A DNA stretch of 64,000 nt from Dictyostelium discoideum (Eukaryota): assembly GCA_000004695.1 (NCBI GenBank), contig CM000151.3, forward strand, positions 6,848,001 through 6,912,000, in the 5' to 3' direction. Below the pieces are notes generated by a model. The model did not search any database. It worked only from the letters and a program-made list of their open reading frames with translations, and had not been told where the DNA came from. Made by a program: the position numbers and the translations under genes. Each line of letters starts with the position of its first letter. Position 1 is the first letter of the stretch. Of this stretch, positions 12,914-54,781 are shown piece after piece.

Positions 12914-14335
12914 AAAAGAAGAAAAAAAGAAAATTAAAATTGAAAAATAGAAAGAATATGTTAAAGCATATTAAATGCTATTGGAATAATTTTTTAAGAT
13001 GTTATCATAAAATATAAACTGGGAAGACTTAGAAATTAAAATTAGGTTTAAAGGAAACCCAAAAAATAATAAAAAAAAAAATTAAAAATGAAATAAAAAA
13101 AAAAAAAAAAAAAAAAAGAGAAAGAGAAAGAAAGGGAGAGAGCTGTTTTTAGGGAGGTTTCCCCATTAATTAATTTTTTTTTAAAAAAATTATAAAAATA
13201 TGATTAAAGAGTTATAGTTAAAGAAATATTAAAAAAATATAATTTAAAAAGTGATCAGAATCAAAAATAAAAATTATTTATACTCCAAAAAAAAAAAATA
13301 AAAAAAAAAAAAATAAAAAATAAAAATAAATTAAATATTCACTCTACAAATATTATAACCACTATTTTTTTTTTAAATAATATTTCAATACCTTTTTATA
13401 ACAAGTATTAATATATTCAAACTTTTTTTTAAAAATGGAGATAAATCTTTTATCATTTATCAAAAAATAATTAATGGGTTTTTTTTTTTTTTTTTAATTT
13501 TCACTTCTTTTAGAGTGGTTTTAATATTGTTTTGGTCATTAATTTTAAATAATTTTTTTATAAAAATTTTTTATTTATCTAATTTTTGATTTTTTTTTTT
13601 TTTTTTTTTTTTTAACCTACTTTTTTATTAGTATATTTTTTTTTTTTTTTTCTAACTTTTTTAATTTTAACTACTTGTAGTTTTATTATCAAATAATAAT
13701 AATAATAAAATAATTATAGTTAGAGGTTTTAAATAAAAAATAAAATAGAATTAAATAAAAAATATTATTTTTAAAAATAAGCTTTTTAATTTTAAAAAAA
13801 AAAATTTTTAAGTTTGTATTAAATAAAATCGAAATTTTAAATTCAATGTTTTCCACCATTTTTAAAATTATTATTTTTTATTTGGTATATTAAAACAATA
13901 AATAACTGATTTTTTATACTCTTTTATTAAGTTTATAATTTAAAGTTTATTCATTTCTACCTTAAAAATTAAATTTCTTTAAAATTCTTTTTATTTTTTG
14001 CAAAAAAAGTAATAATTAATATTGAAACCTAGAACATTGACAAAAAAAAATAATTAAAAGGATTAATGAAAATTAAATCAAATTTATAGTTATCTTGAAG
14101 CATCTATACGAAATACATTAGATATTTGCACGTGGCCTATTGTTTTGTTATTGTCTTTTTCTTTTTTTTTTTTTTTTTTGATTAAAATGAAATAAATAAA
14201 TAATGAAATTGGGTAATAAAATGAGGAAAATGAAATAACTTAATTTATATTTTCACAATAATTATTTTTTGTTAAAAAAAAAAATTAATTAATTAAATCA
14301 ATTAACTTATATATATATTTATATATAAATATATT

Positions 14336-31364: not shown

Positions 31365-31888
31365 TATTTTGAAAAAAATATCTATATTACCAATTATGTT
31401 TTTAAATGTTTTTATTGAGATGAGAAAATAAATAAATTTTTATAAAAAATTAGAGTTTTGATTTTAATTGTTTTAGTTTGGATAGTTGTGTTGTGTTGTG
31501 TTTAATATTCTATTTATAATTTTTGATGAAGTGAAAACGTTAAAATTATTGAATTGCTGAATTGAAATTTAATTCAAAAAAAATAAAATTTATTTTAATT
31601 TTTGTTTTTTTAAGAAAACATTTCAACCATTCGATTTAAATTTTTATTTTTTTATTTTTTTTATTTTTTTGGGTTGAAATGTTTTCTTAAAAAAAATAAT
31701 TCTTCGAAAAAGTTAAATTGAACCGATTAAATAATTTTTTTTTTTTTTTTTTTTTTTTATTAAATAAACAATAATTAAATTAAACCTATTGATATACTTC
31801 AATATTTTTATAATGGTTTTATTTATGAATTTTAATTTTAAAATGTAAAGCTATTTCTTTTTTTTTTAATTTGAATTTTCAAATAAGG

Positions 31889-43920: not shown

Positions 43921-45904
43921 ATTCGTTAAACCCATCATAATAAACTATTTTTTAGTAATATAGCATTAAGTGCGTTTTATTTATTTTAGTATTTTTTATT
44001 GAGTTAGAGGAATCAAAAATTATTATTATATTACTATTATTATTTTAAGTCAATAGTTTTTTAATTTAATTTTATTATAAATCTACAAATCTATATTTCA
44101 TCAATTAATTGGACATTATTCAATACAAATAAAAAAAATAAATGACAACATATATGAACTAAAAATAGAATTTTTTTTTTATATAAACACACCGATCCAA
44201 AAAAAGTGTGGTTAAAATTTAATAACAATATCTAGATTTAAATTTTTTTTTTTTTTTTTTTTTTTATATGTATACTAAAATAAATAAAAAACAAATATAT
44301 ATAAAAGAAATAATTATTTTTATAAATGACGATCATTTATTTTTTATTTGTTATTTATGTCAGTAAAAAATGTTTTGAGAGAAATTTTTTTTTTTTTTTT
44401 TTTATACATACTAACCAAACTTTAAATCAGATTCTACATAAACTAATGTTATAAAAAAAAAAAAAAAAAACAAAAATGAAAAGATATTGGATTTAAATAA
44501 CTGCGAAATAGATTTAAATCAATGAAGTTTTAATAATATCCAAGACCAAACATATGCATAAAAAAAAAATTAAAAAAAAAAAAAAAAAAAAAAAAATTAT
44601 TAAAAATTTATTATTATTTTATTCCAGCTTGTATTTAATTTCCAAGGCAAGAGAATAAAATTTCTATTAATATTCATTAATTTTTTTTTATTTTTTTAAA
44701 GATTTATTAAGAAATACTAAATACTTTATAATGGTTTAATTATTATTTTATTTTTTTTTTTTTTTTTGATTTCATTTTTGATCATGTGATCCAATGAATC
44801 AATATAAAAAAAAATAAAAAAAAAAAAAAATAAAATATTTTAATAAAAATAAAATATTTTGGTTAGTGGTGGGTGTTGATATCAACATTTTACTTTTTAA
44901 AAATCAAAAACCTATTTTTAATGTCAATTGCAACATTAACTAATTACAAATTCTTTCATTAATTCCGAATATTATTAAATATTTTCTTTGAAAACAAAAA
45001 AAAAAAAAGAATAAAAAAACAAAGAGTATTTTATAAAATTGTTTTACATATTTTATATTTTAGTTTTTTTTTTTTTATTTAATTTTTTTTTTTTTTTATT
45101 TTATTTTTATATAGTTTTATTTAATAATTTACGAAAACATATTCTCTTCATTTTAAAATATAAATAATGATATATAGTAAGTTGTAGAAAAAAAAAAAAA
45201 AAAAAAATGAAATTAATAAAAAATATTTTGTTATTTATTTATTAACAATTATTTAATTTAAATTATTTCAGAATCAATGGTTTTTAAATATTATAAATGT
45301 GAATCATGTAATTCAAATCATATAGAATCAGGTTCATCTCATTCAATAAATTATTGTTTGGATTTAAATTCAAGTAAAATTTATAGAAATCTAACATGTA
45401 CATCATTTTTTACTCGCCCAATTTTCCAATCTTTTTAAATATTAGGTCAACACTGAATTTCTTGAAAAAAAAAAAACAAATAAAATAAAAAATCCATCAA
45501 ATGAAAAAACAATTGAACATATATTCCGAAATCAAAATAAGATTAAAAAATTTCAAATTGTTAGATTTTATTTATATTTTTTAAAAAATATTAAAACAAA
45601 CAATTAATAAATTATTTTCATTTTATTTTGCTATTAAAAAAATCATTTATTTCTAAAATTGTTTTTTGAGAAATTAGAATTAAAAAAAAAAAAAGAAAAA
45701 CCCCACAAACAAAAATAATAAAATTAATTCTGGTTAGTCGACACATAATGAAAATAAAACTAATTCTGGTGAGTCAACATTTTGAAAATAAAATTAATTT
45801 ATTTTTAATAAAAAAAAGATTTTTCAATTCTTTTTTTTCTTCATTATTCAAGACGAAAATTGACCATCTTCATCAAAAAAAAAAAATTTAATTTAATTTT
45901 TTTT

Positions 45905-46440
45905 TTGGTAGTGAATGGGGCATAAGATCAGTGAATTTATTTGATTTTCATTTAAAATATCATCCTGAAAGAATACAAACCTATATTAGAGCAGCATTTG
46001 GCTCAATCTTCCTATATTATCATCCAAAATTTATTATTAAGGTTTTAAAATTTTTAGAAGAGTCTATCAATCATAATAAACCATTTACTTTAACTATAAG
46101 TGAAAGAAATTATTTCATTATTAAATATTTAGATAGTTATAAATATAATGAAGAATTGTTTTAAAATGATATTGAATAATCCGATATCACCAACTTCAAT
46201 ATTTCGAAATATCCAAATTTTTAAGAAATTTTCAAGTGTAGATACAAGAATGGGTGTATATAGTTATTTAACTTATAAAAAATTACTCCCTTTTGGATTT
46301 AATAGTATTCGAACATCATTTTATTACCGTAATGAAAGTTCATACGAACCTAAATTAACTTTCTAAAAACAATAATAAAGTATAAAAATAAAACAATAAA
46401 TTATATACACAAATATTAAAAAATTCTTTTGGTAATAAAA
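45905..46440 (+). pseudogene. Truncated, frame-disrupted copy of the 5' part of the 1615-aa gene at 49934..54781 (equivalent to about residues 90-245), fused directly to a copy of that gene's 3' flank.
   Basis: It splits into two frame-shifted ORFs: 45931..46164 (LFDFHLKYHPE.IQT...HPK.IIKVL.F..ESINHNKP.TLT..ERNYFI) and 46148..46366 (NPISPTSIF.N.....LPFGFN.I.TSF). These are about 80% identical at nucleotide level to 50270..50720. The end at 46350..46440 (CTAAATTAACTTTCTAAAAA.AATAA..TATAAAAATAAAACAATA) matches 54850..54905 downstream of the intact gene. Confidence 0.6.
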
Positions 46441-47387: not shown

Positions 47388-48050
47388 AAATTAAATAAAA
47401 TAATAAAATATATAATCAATCTATTATTCATTTTTAAAATTTCAAATGGTTATAAATTATTAAAAATATTTTTTAAATAAACTCTAGCAACCAATCTTTT
47501 AAATATTTAATTAAATTATTTTCAACCAGTGTTTAAATTTTTTTTTTTATAATTTATTTCTCATCCCATAGGAATCTAATCTATTACTATTTTTACTATT
47601 TTTATTTGATCCATTTATTAAAACACATATATTATATATATATAAATTATTTTTTATTTTTTATTTTAATTTTTTAACTATAAAATGTAATCAAAAAAAA
47701 AATTAATTAAAATAAAAACCAAAAACTGTCTTAAACAAAGCTATAAAAAATGATATTTAGTAAGGTTTTTTTTTTTATAAAATTGTTTTTTTTAATAGGT
47801 TTATTAACAAACTATTTTTCTTTTAGAAAATTTAATTTCAATATCATTAAAATCAAATTCGTCTCAAAATGGAATTAATAAAAAAGAAATGTCTTCAACA
47901 TCTCAGTCTCAAAATTTATCATTAAAATCAAATGGAATTTTATATTATAGACCACATTTTAATAATTATTAAGTTATAAAAAATTAATTCCATGATTTGT
48001 TTACCAACTATCTCAAGGGAGAATTAAATGAAATTTAATTTGTTCAGAAG

Positions 48051-48083
<33 letters not shown>

Positions 48084-48152
48084 AAAAAAAAATCCAATCG
48101 ATCAATTTTACATTTTAGTTTAAGATAAATTTAATTTTATTTAAAATTTAAG

Positions 48153-48195
<43 letters not shown>

Positions 48196-48343
48196 ATTAA
48201 AAAAACGTTTTTGTTTAATAAAAATAAAATTTAAAAACTGATTAACAAAAAATTTTTTTTTTTTTTAAATTTTAATTTTTTTTAATTTTTTTTAATCCGA
48301 TTTTTTCAGATATTTTTTTTTTTTTATTTTTATTTTTTTTTTT

Positions 48344-48374
<31 letters not shown>

Positions 48375-48380
48375 GAAAGA

Positions 48381-49085
48381 ATGGAGACTAAATTAAATTT
48401 TGATGAAGCTATAAATAAAATTGACAAGATATTGAAACTTGGTCAACTTTTTAATGTAGTCGGAGGAGATATCTTTTTCTGTATTTGTAGTACTAGTAAT
48501 TCCGATGTAAATAATATTGATAAACAAGAAAATAATGATAACGGTAATAGTGATAATAAATTTGATGAGCAAGTATGCAAACGTTTTGAAAATAATTTTA
48601 ATACCAGATTTACAAATATGGTAATCAATATAAAAACTAAACCAGTTAGAGTTGAATTTATTGGTAATTGTGATTCAAAATCAACCGAATTAGAAATAAT
48701 TAAATATTATCGTTCAAATCCAAATTTTATTAATTTAGTAGATTATGAAAATAATAGTTCAACCTCTTCAAATGAAAATAATAGATATATTCATATTCGT
48801 CTTTATTCATTACCAAAAGAATGGTCAATGACATATGTTTGTGAAAAATCTTTTGAACATTCCCATACCCACACTCATGAACAAGGTCATGGTCATCATC
48901 ACAATCACCATCATAATCAGAATGATCATCACCATCACCACCATAATGATCTTGACCCTTCCCATCACCATCACCACCACCATGAGGATGATCATTCTCA
49001 TGAACATGGACATTCCCACTCTCATACTCACACCCATACTCACCCAGGCTCAGAAGAAACCTATCAATGTATGAATTTCCATTGA
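48381..49085 (+). CDS. Histidine-rich protein, 234 aa, single exon, a candidate metal-binding protein.
   Basis: A roughly 165-aa N-terminal domain (METKLNFDEAINKIDKILKLGQLFNVVGGDIFFCICSTS...YVCEKSFEHSH) is followed by a 65-aa tail that is over 50% His (HTHTHEQGHGHHHNHHHNQNDHHHHHHNDLDPSHHHHHHHEDDHSHEHGHSHSHTHTHTH). Confidence 0.7.
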   Translation: METKLNFDEAINKIDKILKLGQLFNVVGGDIFFCICSTSNSDVNNIDKQENNDNGNSDNKFDEQVCKRFENNFNTRFTNMVINIKTKPVRVEFIGNCDSKSTELEIIKYYRSNPNFINLVDYENNSSTSSNENNRYIHIRLYSLPKEWSMTYVCEKSFEHSHTHTHEQGHGHHHNHHHNQNDHHHHHHNDLDPSHHHHHHHEDDHSHEHGHSHSHTHTHTHPGSEETYQCMNFH

Positions 49086-49247
49086 TAATAATTAGTGTTT
49101 AACTTTATCAAGAAATTTTTTTTTTTCCAAGGATATTGGAAAATAAAAGAATAAAAAATTAAAAAATAAAGATTGAAGGGTTATTATTATTTCGTATTTT
49201 ATTTATTTGTATTTATTAATTTTTCACCTCAATTACATAAATTGAAC

Positions 49248-49283
<36 letters not shown>

Positions 49284-49369
49284 CTAAAAATAGAAAAAAA
49301 AAAAAAAATCTGTATAATAATGTTCATGATATCAAATATTTTTCATTGAAATTTAATTCTTATTAATTT

Positions 49370-49640
49370 GAAGATTGAAAGAAAAAAAGACTATTTCTTG
49401 GATGTCCAAAACAAAAATTCATTTTATTTTTTTTATTTTTTTATTTTAATTTTTTTAATTTTTCTTTTTTCATTTTTTTTTTTTTTTAAAACAAAACTTA
49501 AATAAAAATAATAAATAATCAAAGAATTGGATGAGTACTTCAAACCATTATCACTTCAAATTGTTATTTGTAAGAAAATAATAATAAATAATCAAAGAAT
49601 TGGATGGGTACTTCAAACCATTATCACATTTAAATCTTTG
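49370..49640 (+). repeat. Duplicated copy of the promoter and 5'-leader of the 1615-aa gene (compare 49790..49933). In the copy the ATG region is replaced by two tandem copies of a body-derived segment (GGATGRGTACTTCAAACCATTATCAC, compare 54634..54660 and 52898..52920).
   Basis: Direct repeats seen by eye. GATTTCTTGGAT(G/A)TCCAAAACAAAAATT...AAATAAAAATAATAAATAAT occurs at both 49385..49530 and 49800..49935. Confidence 0.55.
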
Positions 49641-49746
49641 TTATCTGTCCCAAAATTACCATAATAATTTCAGCCTAAAAACGGGTTGTTTATGCATGCT
49701 TAAATTGATATGGTAATTTTGGGACAGATAACAAAGATTTAAATGT
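49626..49746. repeat. Perfect 38-bp inverted repeat (ACATTTAAATCTTTGTTATCTGTCCCAAAATTACCATA / TATGGTAATTTTGGGACAGATAACAAAGATTTAAATGT) with a 45-bp GC-containing spacer. It could be a foldback or MITE-like element, or a hairpin RNA.
   Basis: Arms at 49626..49663 and 49709..49746 are exact reverse complements. The spacer is ATAATTTCAGCCTAAAAACGGGTTGTTTATGCATGCTTAAATTGA. Confidence 0.8.
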
Positions 49747-49933
49747 AGAGCTTTTATTTTTTTCTATTTCTAAATAAGTTGGTATGAATTTTGAAAATCA
49801 AAAGAAAAAAACACGATTTCTTGGATATCCAAAACAAAAATTTTTTTTTTTTTAATTTTTTTATTTTTTCATTTTTTTTTTATTTTTTTTTTTCTTTTAA
49901 ACAAAATATAAATAAAAATAATAAATAATTATA

Positions 49934-52900
49934 ATGAATAATGAATATAATGAATTATTATTTTGGAAAGTTTTTAAAAATAATTATTTATTAAATTGTA
50001 TATTAAAAAATAAATGTTGTTATAAAAGTAAAAAATTTAAAACTATTACATCAATAGATTCAATGTTAAAACATAAACAATATCAACTGTTGATATGTAA
50101 ATTAAAAGCAGATGAAAATTTGTATTTTAAAGGAAAATATGGAAATGATGAGATCATTAATAGAATAGAAGATATAGAAGTATTCAAAGAGATATATTCA
50201 TTATTACTCTTTAAAGGTTATCAAGATACTAGGGATCATCGTATTTTATTCGATAGTATTTGGGGTATAAAATCAGTAGATTTATTTGATTTTCATTTAA
50301 AATATCATCCAGAAGAATTACAAACCCATATTACAACATCCATATACTCAATCTTGGTATATAATCATCCAAAATTAATAATAAAGGTTTTAAATTTTTT
50401 TAAAGAGTCCATCAATCATAATAAACCAATAACTTTAACCAAAAATGAAAGAAATTATTTCATTATGGAATATTTATATTATTGTAGATATGGAAGAAAT
50501 ATTGAAGAATTGAAAGAAAAGATGAAAATGATATGGAATATTCCAATATCGTCAACCTCAATATTTCATAATTCAGAAAAAAGAGTTCCAAGTGCGAATG
50601 TAGGTTGTTTTCTAAAATATCAAAAATTATTACCTTTTGGATTTAATAATATTCAAACATCATTTGATTGCTCTAAAGAAAATCCAAGGAGTTATTCTTC
50701 TATTGGTGATAGGCGGGGAGATGAAAATAATCAACGTTCTGTTTATAGCATAAATCATTTAAATATGTTTTCAAGTTTTTGTTATGACTTTGATGATAGT
50801 ATTTGCGAGTACATAAAAGATGTTAAAGGAAATTTTGAGTGTATCTCTTCATCTATCAAATCAGTTTTATTATATTTTAAATTGTATTATTGCAACTATG
50901 ATTATAAAAGTAAATCAAAAAGTATACCAACATCGATTCAAACTCAAATTGATATAATAATTGAAAATAGTAAACATAGACGTTGTACTGTATATCAATC
51001 AATTAAACAATTATTTCAACTATTAGCCATTGAATCAAAATCAATTGTTTTATATGCATTTTATTTAAAAGAATATAATGAACCAATTGATACCATTGAA
51101 CTTAGTGAAGAAATTCAATTATTGTTAATATATTACATGATAAAAACCTATAACACCAATATATTAAAGTTTCTATTGAAAAAACATTTAAAAATCAAAT
51201 TAACAAAATTAGATTTGGACTATATTGGTGAATCATATCTCAAATTTTTATTTAAAAGTAAACAAATTAATAAAAACAATATTATTATGTTCTACAAAAA
51301 CTACACATCACAAAAATCAATCATTATAGAAGATTTAGATGAAAAACCACTAGATGATGCAATATCAACAAAGGAACTTATTGATTTGGACAATAAACGA
51401 TTACATTCAATTCTAGGTAATGAATCATCATCGAAATGGAAAGAAATTACATCAAATATAATTGATAATGATATGATTGTTACAATTAAAGATAAAGAAA
51501 CAATCGATTGGTTATCAGATATAGAAACAGGTGGTGGTTGTAGTATTTTAAAAATAAGAGATGCTTTAAATTCAAAATTAAAACAAATGAAACTTGATTT
51601 TAGTACATTGGAATTATTAGAATATGCAAGAATCAAATTTAAACAAGTAATTCCAATTTTAGATTTAAATAAAGAGTTGTGTAATATCCACATTTTACGT
51701 ACTCATGATGATATTGAATCATTAATCAATCGTTTAAACCAATCAAACTTTAATAACAATGAAAATTTATTTAAATATTATATGATTCAAATAATTCAAT
51801 TTGGTTCAAGAAATTCAATGAAATACCTAAGATTAATTTGTGATTCTATTGACGAGTTATTAATGGACTATGAAGGTTGGGTAATTTTAGATGACACTTT
51901 AAGAAGGTTTTATATTAACTCATACCTAATAGAAGGAGAGATATGGGACAATTCAGTAGGTTATCATGAAAATAAAAAGTTCAAAGAATACAAAATACCA
52001 ACTCAACAAACATGTCAAATAATCAATCTCACCAAAATTAAAGTCAATTTCAATCACTTTCCAAATGTAACTTCTTATTTATTACAAACATTTATCGAAC
52101 TTTTAAATTTTGAAGGTGTTCAGTTTATTCTTGATAATTTAAATGGTAAAAATTTAAAATTAAATGAAAAAGCATTTAAAGATCGTTTTCATGATAGAAT
52201 CTATACATGCAAATATTTATATAAAGATTTGATTGAAATGATTCAATTTTTAATTAATAAATTCAAAGATGGTCAATTATCATTATCAAATTTATCATTG
52301 ATATTAAATTTCTTATTTTCAATGTTAATTAGAGTCAATGATTTAACAAATGATCAAATCAAAACAGCTTATCAATCAATATCAAACTATATTGAAATAG
52401 ATAGTTCAGAACTCAATTCATACTATTATTTAAAAACATTATCACCCATTATTTCATCATGTATTATCATTTTTAGAGATAATGGTGGTGGTGATGTTAG
52501 ACCATTACTTGAATATCATATAGATACATCAGTATATACATTCGAACATATATTTACAAATAGAAATAATAACGATCTGAACCAATTTATCGATTCAACA
52601 ATCATGGATATTGTAAAAGATCGTTTTTATTCTAATTTAAACAAAATGTTAGATAACAATAATCCAAGAATTAATTTATTTTTACATTATTTCGAAATTC
52701 AATTAAAATACAAAAATGAAAATGATTTCAAAGGACCATTTTTAAATTATAAACTATTGAAATTAATAATTAAAACATTTGATTTAGAATCATTTATTAA
52801 ATTAGATAGTTTATTAGAGAACCATAATGGTAATTGTGAGCAAGAGGGTTCAAATAACAGGATTTTAAGCGAATTAGAGAAATTTTATTTTAATTGGAAA

Positions 52901-54781
52901 AAACCATTATCATCTAATATGGTTGAATGGTTTGGTATAATTGTATACAAAGATTATTCAGATTATCAAGATATTATAAATTACTTATTTAATAAATATA
53001 AACACCAATTGGAACCATATATAATTTACTATAAATTAAAAATAAATAATAAATCAATAACTAATAATCAGTTACATTCAATTTTATGTAATAAATCATC
53101 ATCGAAATGGAAAGAAATTACATCGAATCTAATTGGTAAGGCCGCTGCTACAATTAAAGATAAAGAAACAATCGATTGGTTATCAGATATAGAAACAGGT
53201 GGTTGTAGTAATTTAAAAATAAGAGATGCTTTACATTCAAGATTAAATCATATGGAACTTGATTTTAGTTCATTGGAATTATTAGAGTATGCAAGAATCA
53301 AATTTAAACAAATCATTTCAATTTTCGATTTATGTGATGAGTTTTTCGAAATTCATATTTTACATACTCATGATGAAATTGAATCATTAATCAATCGTTT
53401 AAACCAATCAAACTTTAATGAAAATGAAGATTTATTTAAAAATTATATGATTCAAATAATTGAATTTGGTTCAAGACTTTCAGCTAAACACATAAGATCA
53501 ATCTTTAAATCATTGGAATATGGCGTTGACAAGTCATCATTGGGAAATGATAATTATAAAGAGTGGAAGTATTTAATAAACAAAGTTTTCAAATACGAGT
53601 ATAGAAGGTTTTTTGATAACCCCTCATACATCCATGAAGAATATTTTTTGGGCCAAATACTACGTGATCATAAAAACGAAGAATACAAAGAATACAATAT
53701 ACCAACTCGACAAGAATCTCAAATAATCAATCTTTCTAAAATTAAAGTCAATTTCAATCACTTTGCAAATGTAACTTCTTATTTATTTCAAGGATCCATC
53801 GAACTTTTAAATTTTGAAGGTGTTCAATTTATTCTTGATAATTTAAATGGTAAAGATTTAAAATTAAATGAAAAAGCATTTAAAGATCATTTTCATGATA
53901 GAATCTATTCATGCGAATATGTTTCTAAAGATTTATATGATACCATTCAATTTTTAATTGAAAAATTCGAAGATGGTCAATTATCACTATCAAATCTATC
54001 ATTGATATTAAATTACTTATTTTCCAAGTTAATTAGAGTCAATGATTTAACAATTGATCAAATCAACATATCTCATCAATTAATATCAAACTATATTGAA
54101 ATAGATAGTTCAAAATACAATTCATACTATTATTTAAAAATATTATCACCAATTATTGAATCATGTATTACCGTTATCGAAGGTCCTACAAGTGATGATG
54201 AAGATGGTAATGGAAAACCAAGACCATTCTGTCATTATGATATAGATACATCAGTATATACATTCGAACACATATTTACAAATAGAAATAATAACGATCA
54301 GAACCAATTTATCGATTCAACAATCATGGATATTGTAAAAGATAATTTTACAATTGAAATATTTTCCAAAATGTTAGATAATAATAATCCAAGAATTAAT
54401 TTATTTTTACATTATTTCGAAATGGAATTAAAAAAAAGAAAAACAAGTAATGATTTCGAAAATGTATTTTTAGAATTTGAACAATTGAAATTAATAATTA
54501 AAACATTTGATTTAGAATCATTTATTAAATTTGAATATTTATTACAACAATATCAATTCTACTTATCACCTGATATCGATGAATGGTCAGATATAAACAA
54601 AGAGTATGCAAATGATCAAGAGGATATAAATGATGGGTACGTCAAACCATTATCATCTAATTTGGTTGAATGGTTTGGTAAAATTTCATTCATATATTAT
54701 CCAGATTATCCAGATATTCTTAATTACTTATTTGATAAATATAAAAACCAATTCGAACCATATACTAATTATATAAATTAA
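49934..54781 (+). CDS. Large hypothetical protein, 1615 aa, single exon. It has a roughly 480-aa N-terminal region followed by two tandem copies, each about 560 aa, of a repeat unit.
   Basis: An uninterrupted ORF. Residues about 488-1050 and 1050-1615 are about 75% identical. Examples: HSILGNESSSKWKEITSNII...KDKETIDWLSDIETGGGCSILKIRDALNSKL vs HSILCNKSSSKWKEITSNLI...KDKETIDWLSDIETGGCSNLKIRDALHSRL. Both units end KPLSSN.VEWFG...DY.DI.NYLF.KYK.Q.EPY. I recognise no known domain. Confidence 0.8.
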   Translation: MNNEYNELLFWKVFKNNYLLNCILKNKCCYKSKKFKTITSIDSMLKHKQYQLLICKLKADENLYFKGKYGNDEIINRIEDIEVFKEIYSLLLFKGYQDTRDHRILFDSIWGIKSVDLFDFHLKYHPEELQTHITTSIYSILVYNHPKLIIKVLNFFKESINHNKPITLTKNERNYFIMEYLYYCRYGRNIEELKEKMKMIWNIPISSTSIFHNSEKRVPSANVGCFLKYQKLLPFGFNNIQTSFDCSKENPRSYSSIGDRRGDENNQRSVYSINHLNMFSSFCYDFDDSICEYIKDVKGNFECISSSIKSVLLYFKLYYCNYDYKSKSKSIPTSIQTQIDIIIENSKHRRCTVYQSIKQLFQLLAIESKSIVLYAFYLKEYNEPIDTIELSEEIQLLLIYYMIKTYNTNILKFLLKKHLKIKLTKLDLDYIGESYLKFLFKSKQINKNNIIMFYKNYTSQKSIIIEDLDEKPLDDAISTKELIDLDNKRLHSILGNESSSKWKEITSNIIDNDMIVTIKDKETIDWLSDIETGGGCSILKIRDALNSKLKQMKLDFSTLELLEYARIKFKQVIPILDLNKELCNIHILRTHDDIESLINRLNQSNFNNNENLFKYYMIQIIQFGSRNSMKYLRLICDSIDELLMDYEGWVILDDTLRRFYINSYLIEGEIWDNSVGYHENKKFKEYKIPTQQTCQIINLTKIKVNFNHFPNVTSYLLQTFIELLNFEGVQFILDNLNGKNLKLNEKAFKDRFHDRIYTCKYLYKDLIEMIQFLINKFKDGQLSLSNLSLILNFLFSMLIRVNDLTNDQIKTAYQSISNYIEIDSSELNSYYYLKTLSPIISSCIIIFRDNGGGDVRPLLEYHIDTSVYTFEHIFTNRNNNDLNQFIDSTIMDIVKDRFYSNLNKMLDNNNPRINLFLHYFEIQLKYKNENDFKGPFLNYKLLKLIIKTFDLESFIKLDSLLENHNGNCEQEGSNNRILSELEKFYFNWKKPLSSNMVEWFGIIVYKDYSDYQDIINYLFNKYKHQLEPYIIYYKLKINNKSITNNQLHSILCNKSSSKWKEITSNLIGKAAATIKDKETIDWLSDIETGGCSNLKIRDALHSRLNHMELDFSSLELLEYARIKFKQIISIFDLCDEFFEIHILHTHDEIESLINRLNQSNFNENEDLFKNYMIQIIEFGSRLSAKHIRSIFKSLEYGVDKSSLGNDNYKEWKYLINKVFKYEYRRFFDNPSYIHEEYFLGQILRDHKNEEYKEYNIPTRQESQIINLSKIKVNFNHFANVTSYLFQGSIELLNFEGVQFILDNLNGKDLKLNEKAFKDHFHDRIYSCEYVSKDLYDTIQFLIEKFEDGQLSLSNLSLILNYLFSKLIRVNDLTIDQINISHQLISNYIEIDSSKYNSYYYLKILSPIIESCITVIEGPTSDDEDGNGKPRPFCHYDIDTSVYTFEHIFTNRNNNDQNQFIDSTIMDIVKDNFTIEIFSKMLDNNNPRINLFLHYFEMELKKRKTSNDFENVFLEFEQLKLIIKTFDLESFIKFEYLLQQYQFYLSPDIDEWSDINKEYANDQEDINDGYVKPLSSNLVEWFGKISFIYYPDYPDILNYLFDKYKNQFEPYTNYIN

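Follow-up and report, generated by a model that had tools for sequence, protein, structure and literature searches.

The 64,000-nucleotide (nt) stretch of Dictyostelium discoideum AX4 DNA considered here (GenBank assembly GCA_000004695.1, contig CM000151.3, positions 6,848,001 to 6,912,000 of the forward strand; hereafter the window, from whose first letter coordinates are counted unless a strain is named) carries a long inverted repeat on chromosome 2, between DDB_G0276557 and DDB_G0276559. The explanation that we favor, and to which we give about an even chance of being right, is that local inverted duplication (by template switching or fold-back synthesis) in a decayed gene duplicate gave rise to the repeat, which would be a composite palindrome of recent origin, specific to one haplotype. 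Most likely it is not a transposon insertion, and it gives no sign of being a dedicated gene.

The repeat had been described in the initial annotation as two perfect 38-nt arms, exact reverse complements of each other with 45 nt between them, and this description was reproduced. The structure is longer than first noted, however, because arms of 49 nt enclose a centre of 23 nt (Table 1), and 46 of the 49 positions are paired in AX4 (94% complementary) and all 49 (100%) in strain L004. The same annotation called the arms normal in complexity and the spacer GC-containing, which agrees with a GC content of 26% in the arms and 31% in the 45-nt spacer, against 17% in the whole intergenic region of 848 nt. 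Within the window, the 38-mer was found only as the two arms even when up to three mismatches were allowed, and dinucleotide shuffles gave an expectation of 0 matches. The capability to form a hairpin or cruciform, suggested at the same time, applies to a stem of 38 to 49 bp, and the RNA folding check that had been recommended gave a predicted fold far beyond chance, with -64.9 and -65.2 kcal/mol for the two strands (z = -12.6 and -13.5). For the + strand as DNA, the predicted value was -43.3 kcal/mol (z = -15).

To follow the repeat across strains, the orthologous locus was reached in five further NCBI assemblies via proteins of the same clusters, making six genomes with AX4. L004 (GCA_054883475) has the AX4 haplotype (26 mismatches in 16,780 aligned nt) and carries the repeat with arms matching at 49/49. 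The other four, namely two further D. discoideum assemblies (L001 and L002) and two of cf. discoideum (L003 and L005), showed no palindrome and a single promoter copy; L005 has an uninterrupted 'empty site', and in L003 pieces of inner arm and spacer are rearranged (…CATGCCAACATTAATATGGTAATTTT CAGAAG CCATATTAATTTCAGCAG…GTTGTTTAA), the spacer motif GTTGTTTA being common to AX4 and L003. The repeat is confined to the AX4/L004 haplotype and absent from four of the six D. discoideum or cf. discoideum genomes.

AX4 and L004 differ within the repeat at 49664, 49701 and 49707, where AX4 has A, T and G, and L004 has T, G and A, and each of the AX4 bases breaks one pair of the inner stem. These substitutions look AX4-derived, because L003 has the L004 base at two of these sites. 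Three of the 26 AX4-versus-L004 mismatches lie inside the 121-nt element, an excess over the 0.155% background (Poisson probability about 1e-3, our own estimate from a post hoc test). Sanger-era errors at the hairpin may be the source of these differences. A second local excess was seen at 44837-45021, where 11 of the 26 substitutions fall in about 185 nt of intergenic DNA.

The surroundings of the repeat consist of duplicated and decayed gene parts. A promoter segment is present as a direct repeat (49367-49475 and 49790-49898, 81% identical), and the single promoter of L001 matches both AX4 copies, at 49329-49519 (78%, 192 nt) and at 49807-49951 (85%, 152 nt). The initial annotation placed the inverted repeat where the duplicated promoter segment joins, and this was confirmed: the repeat is flanked by the two copies, borders on the second duplicated unit and falls in a region in which the strains differ by rearrangements. 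As for the part in the rearrangement that the annotation suggested, the repeat may be a cause or an effect of it. The right arm, which ends 187 nt before the ATG of the 1615-amino-acid (aa) open reading frame (ORF), seems to reach into the 5′ end of the second promoter copy. Between the promoter copies there are also two 73-nt tandem units (pair 49504-49565 and 49577-49638, 89% identical), so that the order is promoter copy A, two 73-nt relics that encode KPLS, the palindrome, promoter copy A′ and the intact gene.

These relics, U1 and U2, come from the family of the downstream gene DDB_G0276559. The family has 29 members, all from D. discoideum or cf. discoideum and without a Pfam domain, and shares a conserved C-terminal motif, …KELDEY.KPLS(S/T)NMVEWFG.II.KDYSDYQDIINYLFNKYKHQLEPY. 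In frame, the relic core reads IIKELD(E/G)YFKPLS and matches this motif; by blastn, it is 95.8% identical over 24 nt to the 3′ end of the downstream gene (window 54632-54655) and 94.7% identical over 38 nt to 13107-13144 of the L003 orthologue (E = 1e-11). A far better relic of the family 3′ end is found in L005, just upstream of the single promoter (EIIKKLDGYVKPLSHNMV*CFGKISFKYYSDYQDIFNYLFNKYKHQFEPYMNNIN*, with asterisks for stop codons, followed by the 3′ untranslated region (UTR)). It is contiguous, …CCATTATCACAT running directly into AATATGGTTTAATG…, which means that KPLS-NMV is uninterrupted and no hairpin is present. In AX4, the end of U2, CCATTATCACAT, is identical to the empty-site sequence of L005, and the palindrome is placed exactly where KPLS should continue into NMV. 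On these sequence comparisons, what the intergenic region holds is evidently a wrecked tandem duplicate of the gene unit of DDB_G0276559. U1 was also considered as a real first exon (49531-49570, ATG, 13 codons and GTAAG, with the look of a mini exon bearing a 5′ splice site), and this was rejected because it is an out-of-frame relic of …KELDEYFKPLS, the ORF has 16 codons and the unit is absent from the other strains.

The origin of the arms was approached by comparing the + strand of the right arm with six family segments starting at AAACCATTATC, using Smith-Waterman alignment and P values from shuffles. The right arm aligned from TAATATGGT via TTTGG to A(T/A)ACAAAGATT, corresponding to NMV…FG…YKD, with P from <0.0005 to 0.0085 for four of the six segments, and the alignment starts right after KPLS and is collinear. 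In the same + orientation, the left arm showed only chance-level similarity to the family coding sequence (P = 0.6-0.9). In addition, the outer right arm GATAACAAAGATTT (49727-49740) resembles GATATCAAATATTT at 49328, which is the start of the first duplicated unit. It is likely from these alignments that the right arm is native and the left arm its inverted copy.

The inner part of the hairpin has a different affinity, to thug-S, a transposon reportedly described by Glöckner et al. in 2001. The microRNA (miRNA) entry miRNA_can_D3, UAUGGCUGCUGAAAUUAAUGUGG, with its partner D3*, AUUAAUUUCGGCAGCCAUAUU, is thug-S-derived (Meier et al. 2016, PMC4894637, Table 2, S4 Table); six genomic copies are listed, and the partner lies 42 nt 5′ of D3. 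The D3-like 23-mer of AX4 agrees with it at 18 of 23 positions, and that of L004 (9307-9329, TATGCATGCTGAAATTAATATGG) at 20 of 23. The inner left arm (49663-49674) reads AATAATTTCAGC in AX4 and ATTAATTTCAGC in L004, and ATTAATTTCAGC matches the first 12 nt of D3* at 11 positions. D3*-like sequence is 5′ and D3-like sequence 3′, the same order as in the thug-S hairpin. Matches to D3 with five or fewer mismatches occurred only at this locus (in AX4, L004 and L003) in the approximately 145 kb searched, and five shuffled windows contained none with three or fewer. Because the TATGCAT part of the D3-like match is located in the loop, copying of the other arm cannot account for it. L001 and L002 have a vestige, TTTAATTTCTACAGCA, upstream of their relic, and the thug-S-like hairpin fragment seems, from sequence likeness, to be an old resident of this spot. 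A degenerate D3 pattern gave one match in metagenome contigs (L006, 'MAAEINM'), which was rejected as unrelated coding sequence, and D3-pattern scans of prokaryote genome and viral collections yielded no match of use.

The initial annotation had named one finding that would deprive the repeat of novelty, the occurrence of the 38-mer in a known Dictyostelium transposon. This is the case for a part of the structure, in that the inner stem and the loop edge resemble the D3 hairpin of thug-S; the comparison covers this inner part of the structure. Both hairpins have D3-like and D3*-like sequence in their inner part, but the likeness is a similarity and not an identity. The starts of the two elements are 28 nt apart here versus 63 nt in thug-S, 35 nt shorter; AGCCATA, which pairs with D3 in thug-S, is lacking on the 5′ side here; and the present locus is not among the six listed D3 loci.

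By template switching, hairpins with a perfect reverse-complement copy are known to arise in a single step (PMC8794818, PMC10710096, PMC8604942), and close parallels are found in template-switch mutations (TSMs) that create hairpins and de novo miRNA loci (Mönttinen & Löytynoja 2022, PMC8794818; Mönttinen et al. 2023, PMC10710096) and in quasi-palindrome correction (PMC8604942). The present repeat has the corresponding features: one arm is an exact reverse complement of adjacent sequence (49/49 in L004, 23 nt apart), and relatives retain an unduplicated state, as a contiguous relic in L005 and as a locus without hairpin in L001 and L002, L003 being rearranged. It shares with TSMs a perfect copy of adjacent sequence in one lineage and a long perfect stem open to later decay, as in the three AX4 mismatches; probably, too, one arm is ancestral and the other new. 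It differs from them in that it is not a clean single four-point TSM, the region having tandem and segmental duplications as well, and in that about 43 nt of the centre, the thug-S-like part, have no counterpart in the empty site or in the flank.

A course of events by local inverted duplication may be proposed as follows. The right arm would be native, composed of the NMVEWFG..YKD relic and the start of the second duplicated unit, and the outer left arm would be its reverse-complement copy, whereas the inner stem and loop edge would come from a thug-S-like hairpin fragment already at the site, which may have seeded the fold-back. In the first step, the short pre-existing thug-S-like inner stem would fold back during replication, the ATTAATATGG of the relic being complementary to its CCATATTAAT; the folded-back hairpin would then prime copying of the flank, and this copying would lengthen the stem to 49 bp. 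The perfection of the arms (49/49 in L004) would reflect a recent event and not selection for pairing, and the three pair-breaking changes would have been acquired later in AX4. Most likely, the feature arose as an unremarkable side product when sequence was locally duplicated in inverted orientation within a decaying gene duplicate; its core would be a hairpin of transposon type, and the element would be selectively neutral. Should transcripts that start at promoter copy A extend through the repeat, they would fold into a near-perfect 49-bp RNA hairpin that Dicer-like enzymes could cut.

Several observations weigh against this explanation. The statistical support for the right arm as a coding relic is moderate: when the 7-9-nt AATATGG block is left aside, the comparison of the outer arm with the coding sequence gives P = 0.01-0.4, and the same block of the coding match is also part of the thug-S-like match. 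Global alignment to L001 gained nothing significant from the arm (P = 0.25), and the gapped right-arm alignment was not recovered in a MAFFT multiple alignment of the relic and the genes. The tail of U1 weakly resembles the left arm (P = 0.011); if this likeness is real, left-arm-like sequence is older than the tandem duplication, and the perfect arms need later homogenisation or selection. L003 has rearranged pieces of both inner arms, which implies that part of the structure predates the haplotype split, and no reconstruction of the L003 arrangement as a single event was found. The weak likeness of the U1 tail and the rearranged state of L003 show that more than a single event must have shaped the locus. 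The outer arms, too, may be thug-S-derived, and the neutrality of the element is concluded from missing evidence.

In a rival reading, the whole hairpin would be a fragment of the thug-S DNA transposon, or of a related foldback element or miniature inverted-repeat transposable element (MITE), that landed in the relic, and the coding likeness of the right arm would be due to chance. We consider this possible but unlikely. The agreement with D3 (20/23) and D3* (11/12) in the same order speaks for it, as does the location of part of the D3-like match outside the stem. miRNA duplexes usually lie within stems longer than the duplex, so that thug-S may pair further out. Repeat-like hairpins do exist in these loci, as the palindrome at L007 4536-4620 has arm homologues elsewhere, and D3 itself is reported to be thug-S-derived and present in six genomic copies (PMC4894637). 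On the other side, terminal features were lacking and no target-site duplication (TSD) was found, the flanks being ...TTATC/ACATTT...AAATGT/AGAGC... without a direct repeat. Compared with the empty site of L005, CACAT/AATATGG in a contiguous coding relic, the extra 80 nt of AX4 have neither a TSD nor inverted ends of their own. The shorter spacing of the D3*-like and D3-like starts also disagrees with thug-S. The right arm does not look foreign to the site, because it is collinear with the family relic and, in its outer part, with the start of the duplicated promoter unit, albeit with the moderate support described above. No thug-S-like sequence was found elsewhere, and no further copy of the repeat, in the 64-kb window or in seven D. 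discoideum loci (about 126 kb); the total of about 190 kb is about 0.5% of the 34-Mb genome and makes this a weak test.

The initial annotation regarded such a structure as typical of MITE or foldback transposon ends. This was not borne out, in view of the missing TSD, the native look of one arm in line with the family relic and the uninterrupted site of L005. With MITE-type elements, for example the Stowaway-derived MIR1862, the repeat shares its place in AT-rich intergenic DNA and its long, near-perfect hairpin (about 120 nt), but it differs by having no TSD, no demonstrated multiplicity and one arm collinear with native sequence. An Rfam scan of 48000-51500 (E ≤ 10) returned sub-threshold plant MITE-type miRNA hairpins only (MIR7807, 48.5 bits versus a gathering threshold of 90; MIR1862, 46.8 versus 84). 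These scores reflect structure only, and homology was rejected.

A rather improbable reading is that the repeat is a young hairpin-RNA gene, either a proto-miRNA or an endogenous small interfering RNA (siRNA) locus. Promoter copy A, about 110 nt upstream, would drive its transcription, and DrnB/RbdB or DrnA would process the transcript. The predicted fold is very stable on either strand, and its value of -64.9 kcal/mol for 141 nt, or -0.46 kcal/mol/nt, is well within the folding limit used for D. discoideum miRNAs (below -0.2 kcal/mol/nt, PMC6161686). The criteria quoted there for a canonical miRNA gene also ask for at least 10 reads per arm, a shared 5′ end, a 3′ overhang of 2 nt and loss in drnB-. 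In D. discoideum, miRNA genes are mostly intergenic with T-rich motifs before them, and pri-mir-1177 reads into the downstream gene (PMC6161686); in the present case, a promoter-like duplicate lies just upstream. Furthermore, the inner stem is related to a validated miRNA hairpin, coding sequence of the adjacent gene family would be the source of the arms, one of which is antisense to it, and through the three AX4 changes the stem has gone from perfect pairing to a bulged form more like that of miRNAs.

Against a hairpin-RNA gene, the sequence was not found in the searchable text and supplements of D. discoideum small-RNA papers; a literature search gave no match to the arm sequence, and the supplements of Liao 2018 and Edelbroek 2024 contain neither the arms nor a D3-like core. 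No 21-mer of the hairpin came within fewer than three mismatches of the family genes compared (for AX4, those inside the window), the best ungapped matches having at least three mismatches and none lying in the homologous coding motif. Targeting of the gene family by siRNA was rejected for want of a 21-mer match with two or fewer mismatches. Since the element is missing from four of the six genomes, a conserved role is not possible. There was also no match to an Rfam family beyond the sub-threshold structural ones, and no DUSE-type promoter of noncoding RNA was present within 49000-50000.

Plant MIRNA genes reportedly arose when target-gene sequence was duplicated in inverted orientation (Allen et al., 2004). 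The present locus has in common with plant MIRNA, hairpin-RNA and endogenous siRNA loci that a gene family's coding sequence would have supplied the arms, one of them antisense, and that a promoter lies upstream. Unlike in the plant loci, the arms would come from a decayed relic, and indels relative to the live paralogues leave no usable 21-nt complementarity; in addition, no small RNAs are known from this hairpin. Still less probable is the full scenario, which would show an amoebozoan hairpin-RNA gene just as it is being born: a thug-S-type fragment would have seeded template-switch extension into the relic of the neighbouring orphan family, and the resulting 49-bp hairpin, downstream of a duplicated Pol II promoter and polymorphic among wild strains, would be gaining miRNA-like bulges in AX4 and yielding Dicer-dependent small RNAs.

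AT-rich spacers yield many low-complexity inverted matches, but the repeat as a chance match in AT-rich DNA or as an assembly or sequencing artefact has a negligible probability and is refuted, because shuffles expect 0 matches, folding z-scores are -12 to -18 and two independent assemblies (AX4 and GCA_054883475) carry it.

Local inverted duplication, if it is the correct explanation, provides a clear and datable protist case in which one haplotype has a long perfect palindrome and others do not. Such palindromes are the raw material that has been invoked for the birth of hairpins and miRNAs by template switching. At one spot, the locus brings together the relic of a gene family, a duplicated promoter and a miRNA hairpin of transposon type.

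Table 1. Coordinates of the inverted repeat, its surroundings and the other palindromes (window positions unless a strain or locus is named).
Feature	Position	Strand	Size	Remarks
DDB_G0276557, upstream gene	48381..49085	+	234 aa	His-rich C-terminus; from the ORF list; exact protein match XP_643123.1 (D. discoideum AX4)
First promoter copy (Y-A / A)	49328..49519	+		Old coding relic GATATCAAATATTT... and T-rich promoter/5′UTR-like stretch ending AAATAATAAATAAT
U1 relic	49518..49554	+		Family C-terminal coding IIKELDEYFKPLS; in first 73-nt tandem unit, 49504-49576
U2 relic	49591..49627	+		IIKELDGYFKPLS; second coding relic; overlaps left arm by 2 nt
Left arm	49626..49674	+	49 nt	Perfect part 49626-49663; antisense to family coding motif
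Central spacer	49675..49697	+	23 nt	CTAAAAACGGGTTGTTTATGCAT; 35% GC
D3-like 23-mer	49691..49713	+	23 nt	Spans loop edge and inner right arm
Right arm	49698..49746	+	49 nt	Perfect part 49709-49746; + strand collinear with NMVEWFG..YKD coding
T-rich tail	49747..49788	+		From right arm to second promoter copy
Second promoter copy (A′)	49789..49933	+		Directly upstream of ATG
DDB_G0276559, downstream gene	49934..54781	+	1615 aa	Exact match to D. discoideum AX4 protein
Coding motif KPLSSNMVEWFG..YKD in DDB_G0276559	52901-52960 and 54644-54700	+		Source type of relic and right arm
Palindrome	31605-31695		24-bp arms, 43-nt T-rich loop	Arms TTTTTTTAAGAAAACATTTCAACC / GGTTGAAATGTTTTCTTAAAAAAA; intergenic, unrelated to gene family
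Palindrome	L002 2609-2755 (L001 2610-2758)		59-bp arms (41 bp in L001), 29-nt loop	Promoter of upstream paralogue
Palindrome	L005 3736-3807		34-bp arms (97%), 4-nt loop	31 bp perfect with 10-nt loop; older relic next to promoter
Palindrome	L007 4536-4620		36-bp arms (perfect), 13-nt loop	Between two tandem family genes

The compared D. discoideum DNA, a sample biased towards the DDB_G0276559 family, was also scanned for perfect inverted repeats of other than low complexity. Four further long palindromes, perfect or near-perfect, were found at differing positions in different strains, about 1 per 30 kb (Table 1). The one shared by L002 and L001 is situated roughly 100 nt 5′ to the start codon of the upstream paralogue and holds the promoter motif CTTGATAACCCAAGACAAAAAT; AX4 has only a diverged equivalent of its left arm at about 45820-45890, beside a deletion. 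The L005 palindrome is in the orthologous intergenic region, in a different segment from the AX4 repeat. Its right arm matches, by eye, single-copy sequence of AX4 (about 49345-49380) and of L001, and it therefore appears to be an independent local inverted duplication. The palindrome of L007 may be a dispersed repeat, as arm-like sequences were found by BLAST at L005 2581-2679 and 3040-3142. This survey suggests that such palindromes are a common strain-specific variant class in this genome and that the AX4 repeat is no singular device. Frequent inverted duplication in AT-rich intergenic DNA of D. discoideum, if true, would bear on assembly, genome stability and the origin of lineage-specific miRNAs.

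A literature search found no mention of the DDB_G gene IDs of the locus. The copy number of the DDB_G0276559 family differs from strain to strain. Window 45899-46366 is a pseudogene fragment of the family, with 82% nucleotide identity to 50244-50491 and broken ORFs at 45931-46164 and 46148-46366. At its place, L001 and L002 carry an intact paralogue of 1100-1107 aa, which indicates that family copy number is polymorphic. DDB_G0276559 itself contains an internal duplication (51533-52207 versus 53198-53911), in which 300-nt blocks about 1.67 kb apart are 84-88% identical, and its orthologues among the strains range from 1122 to 1973 aa. The gene is itself under remodelling by unequal recombination.

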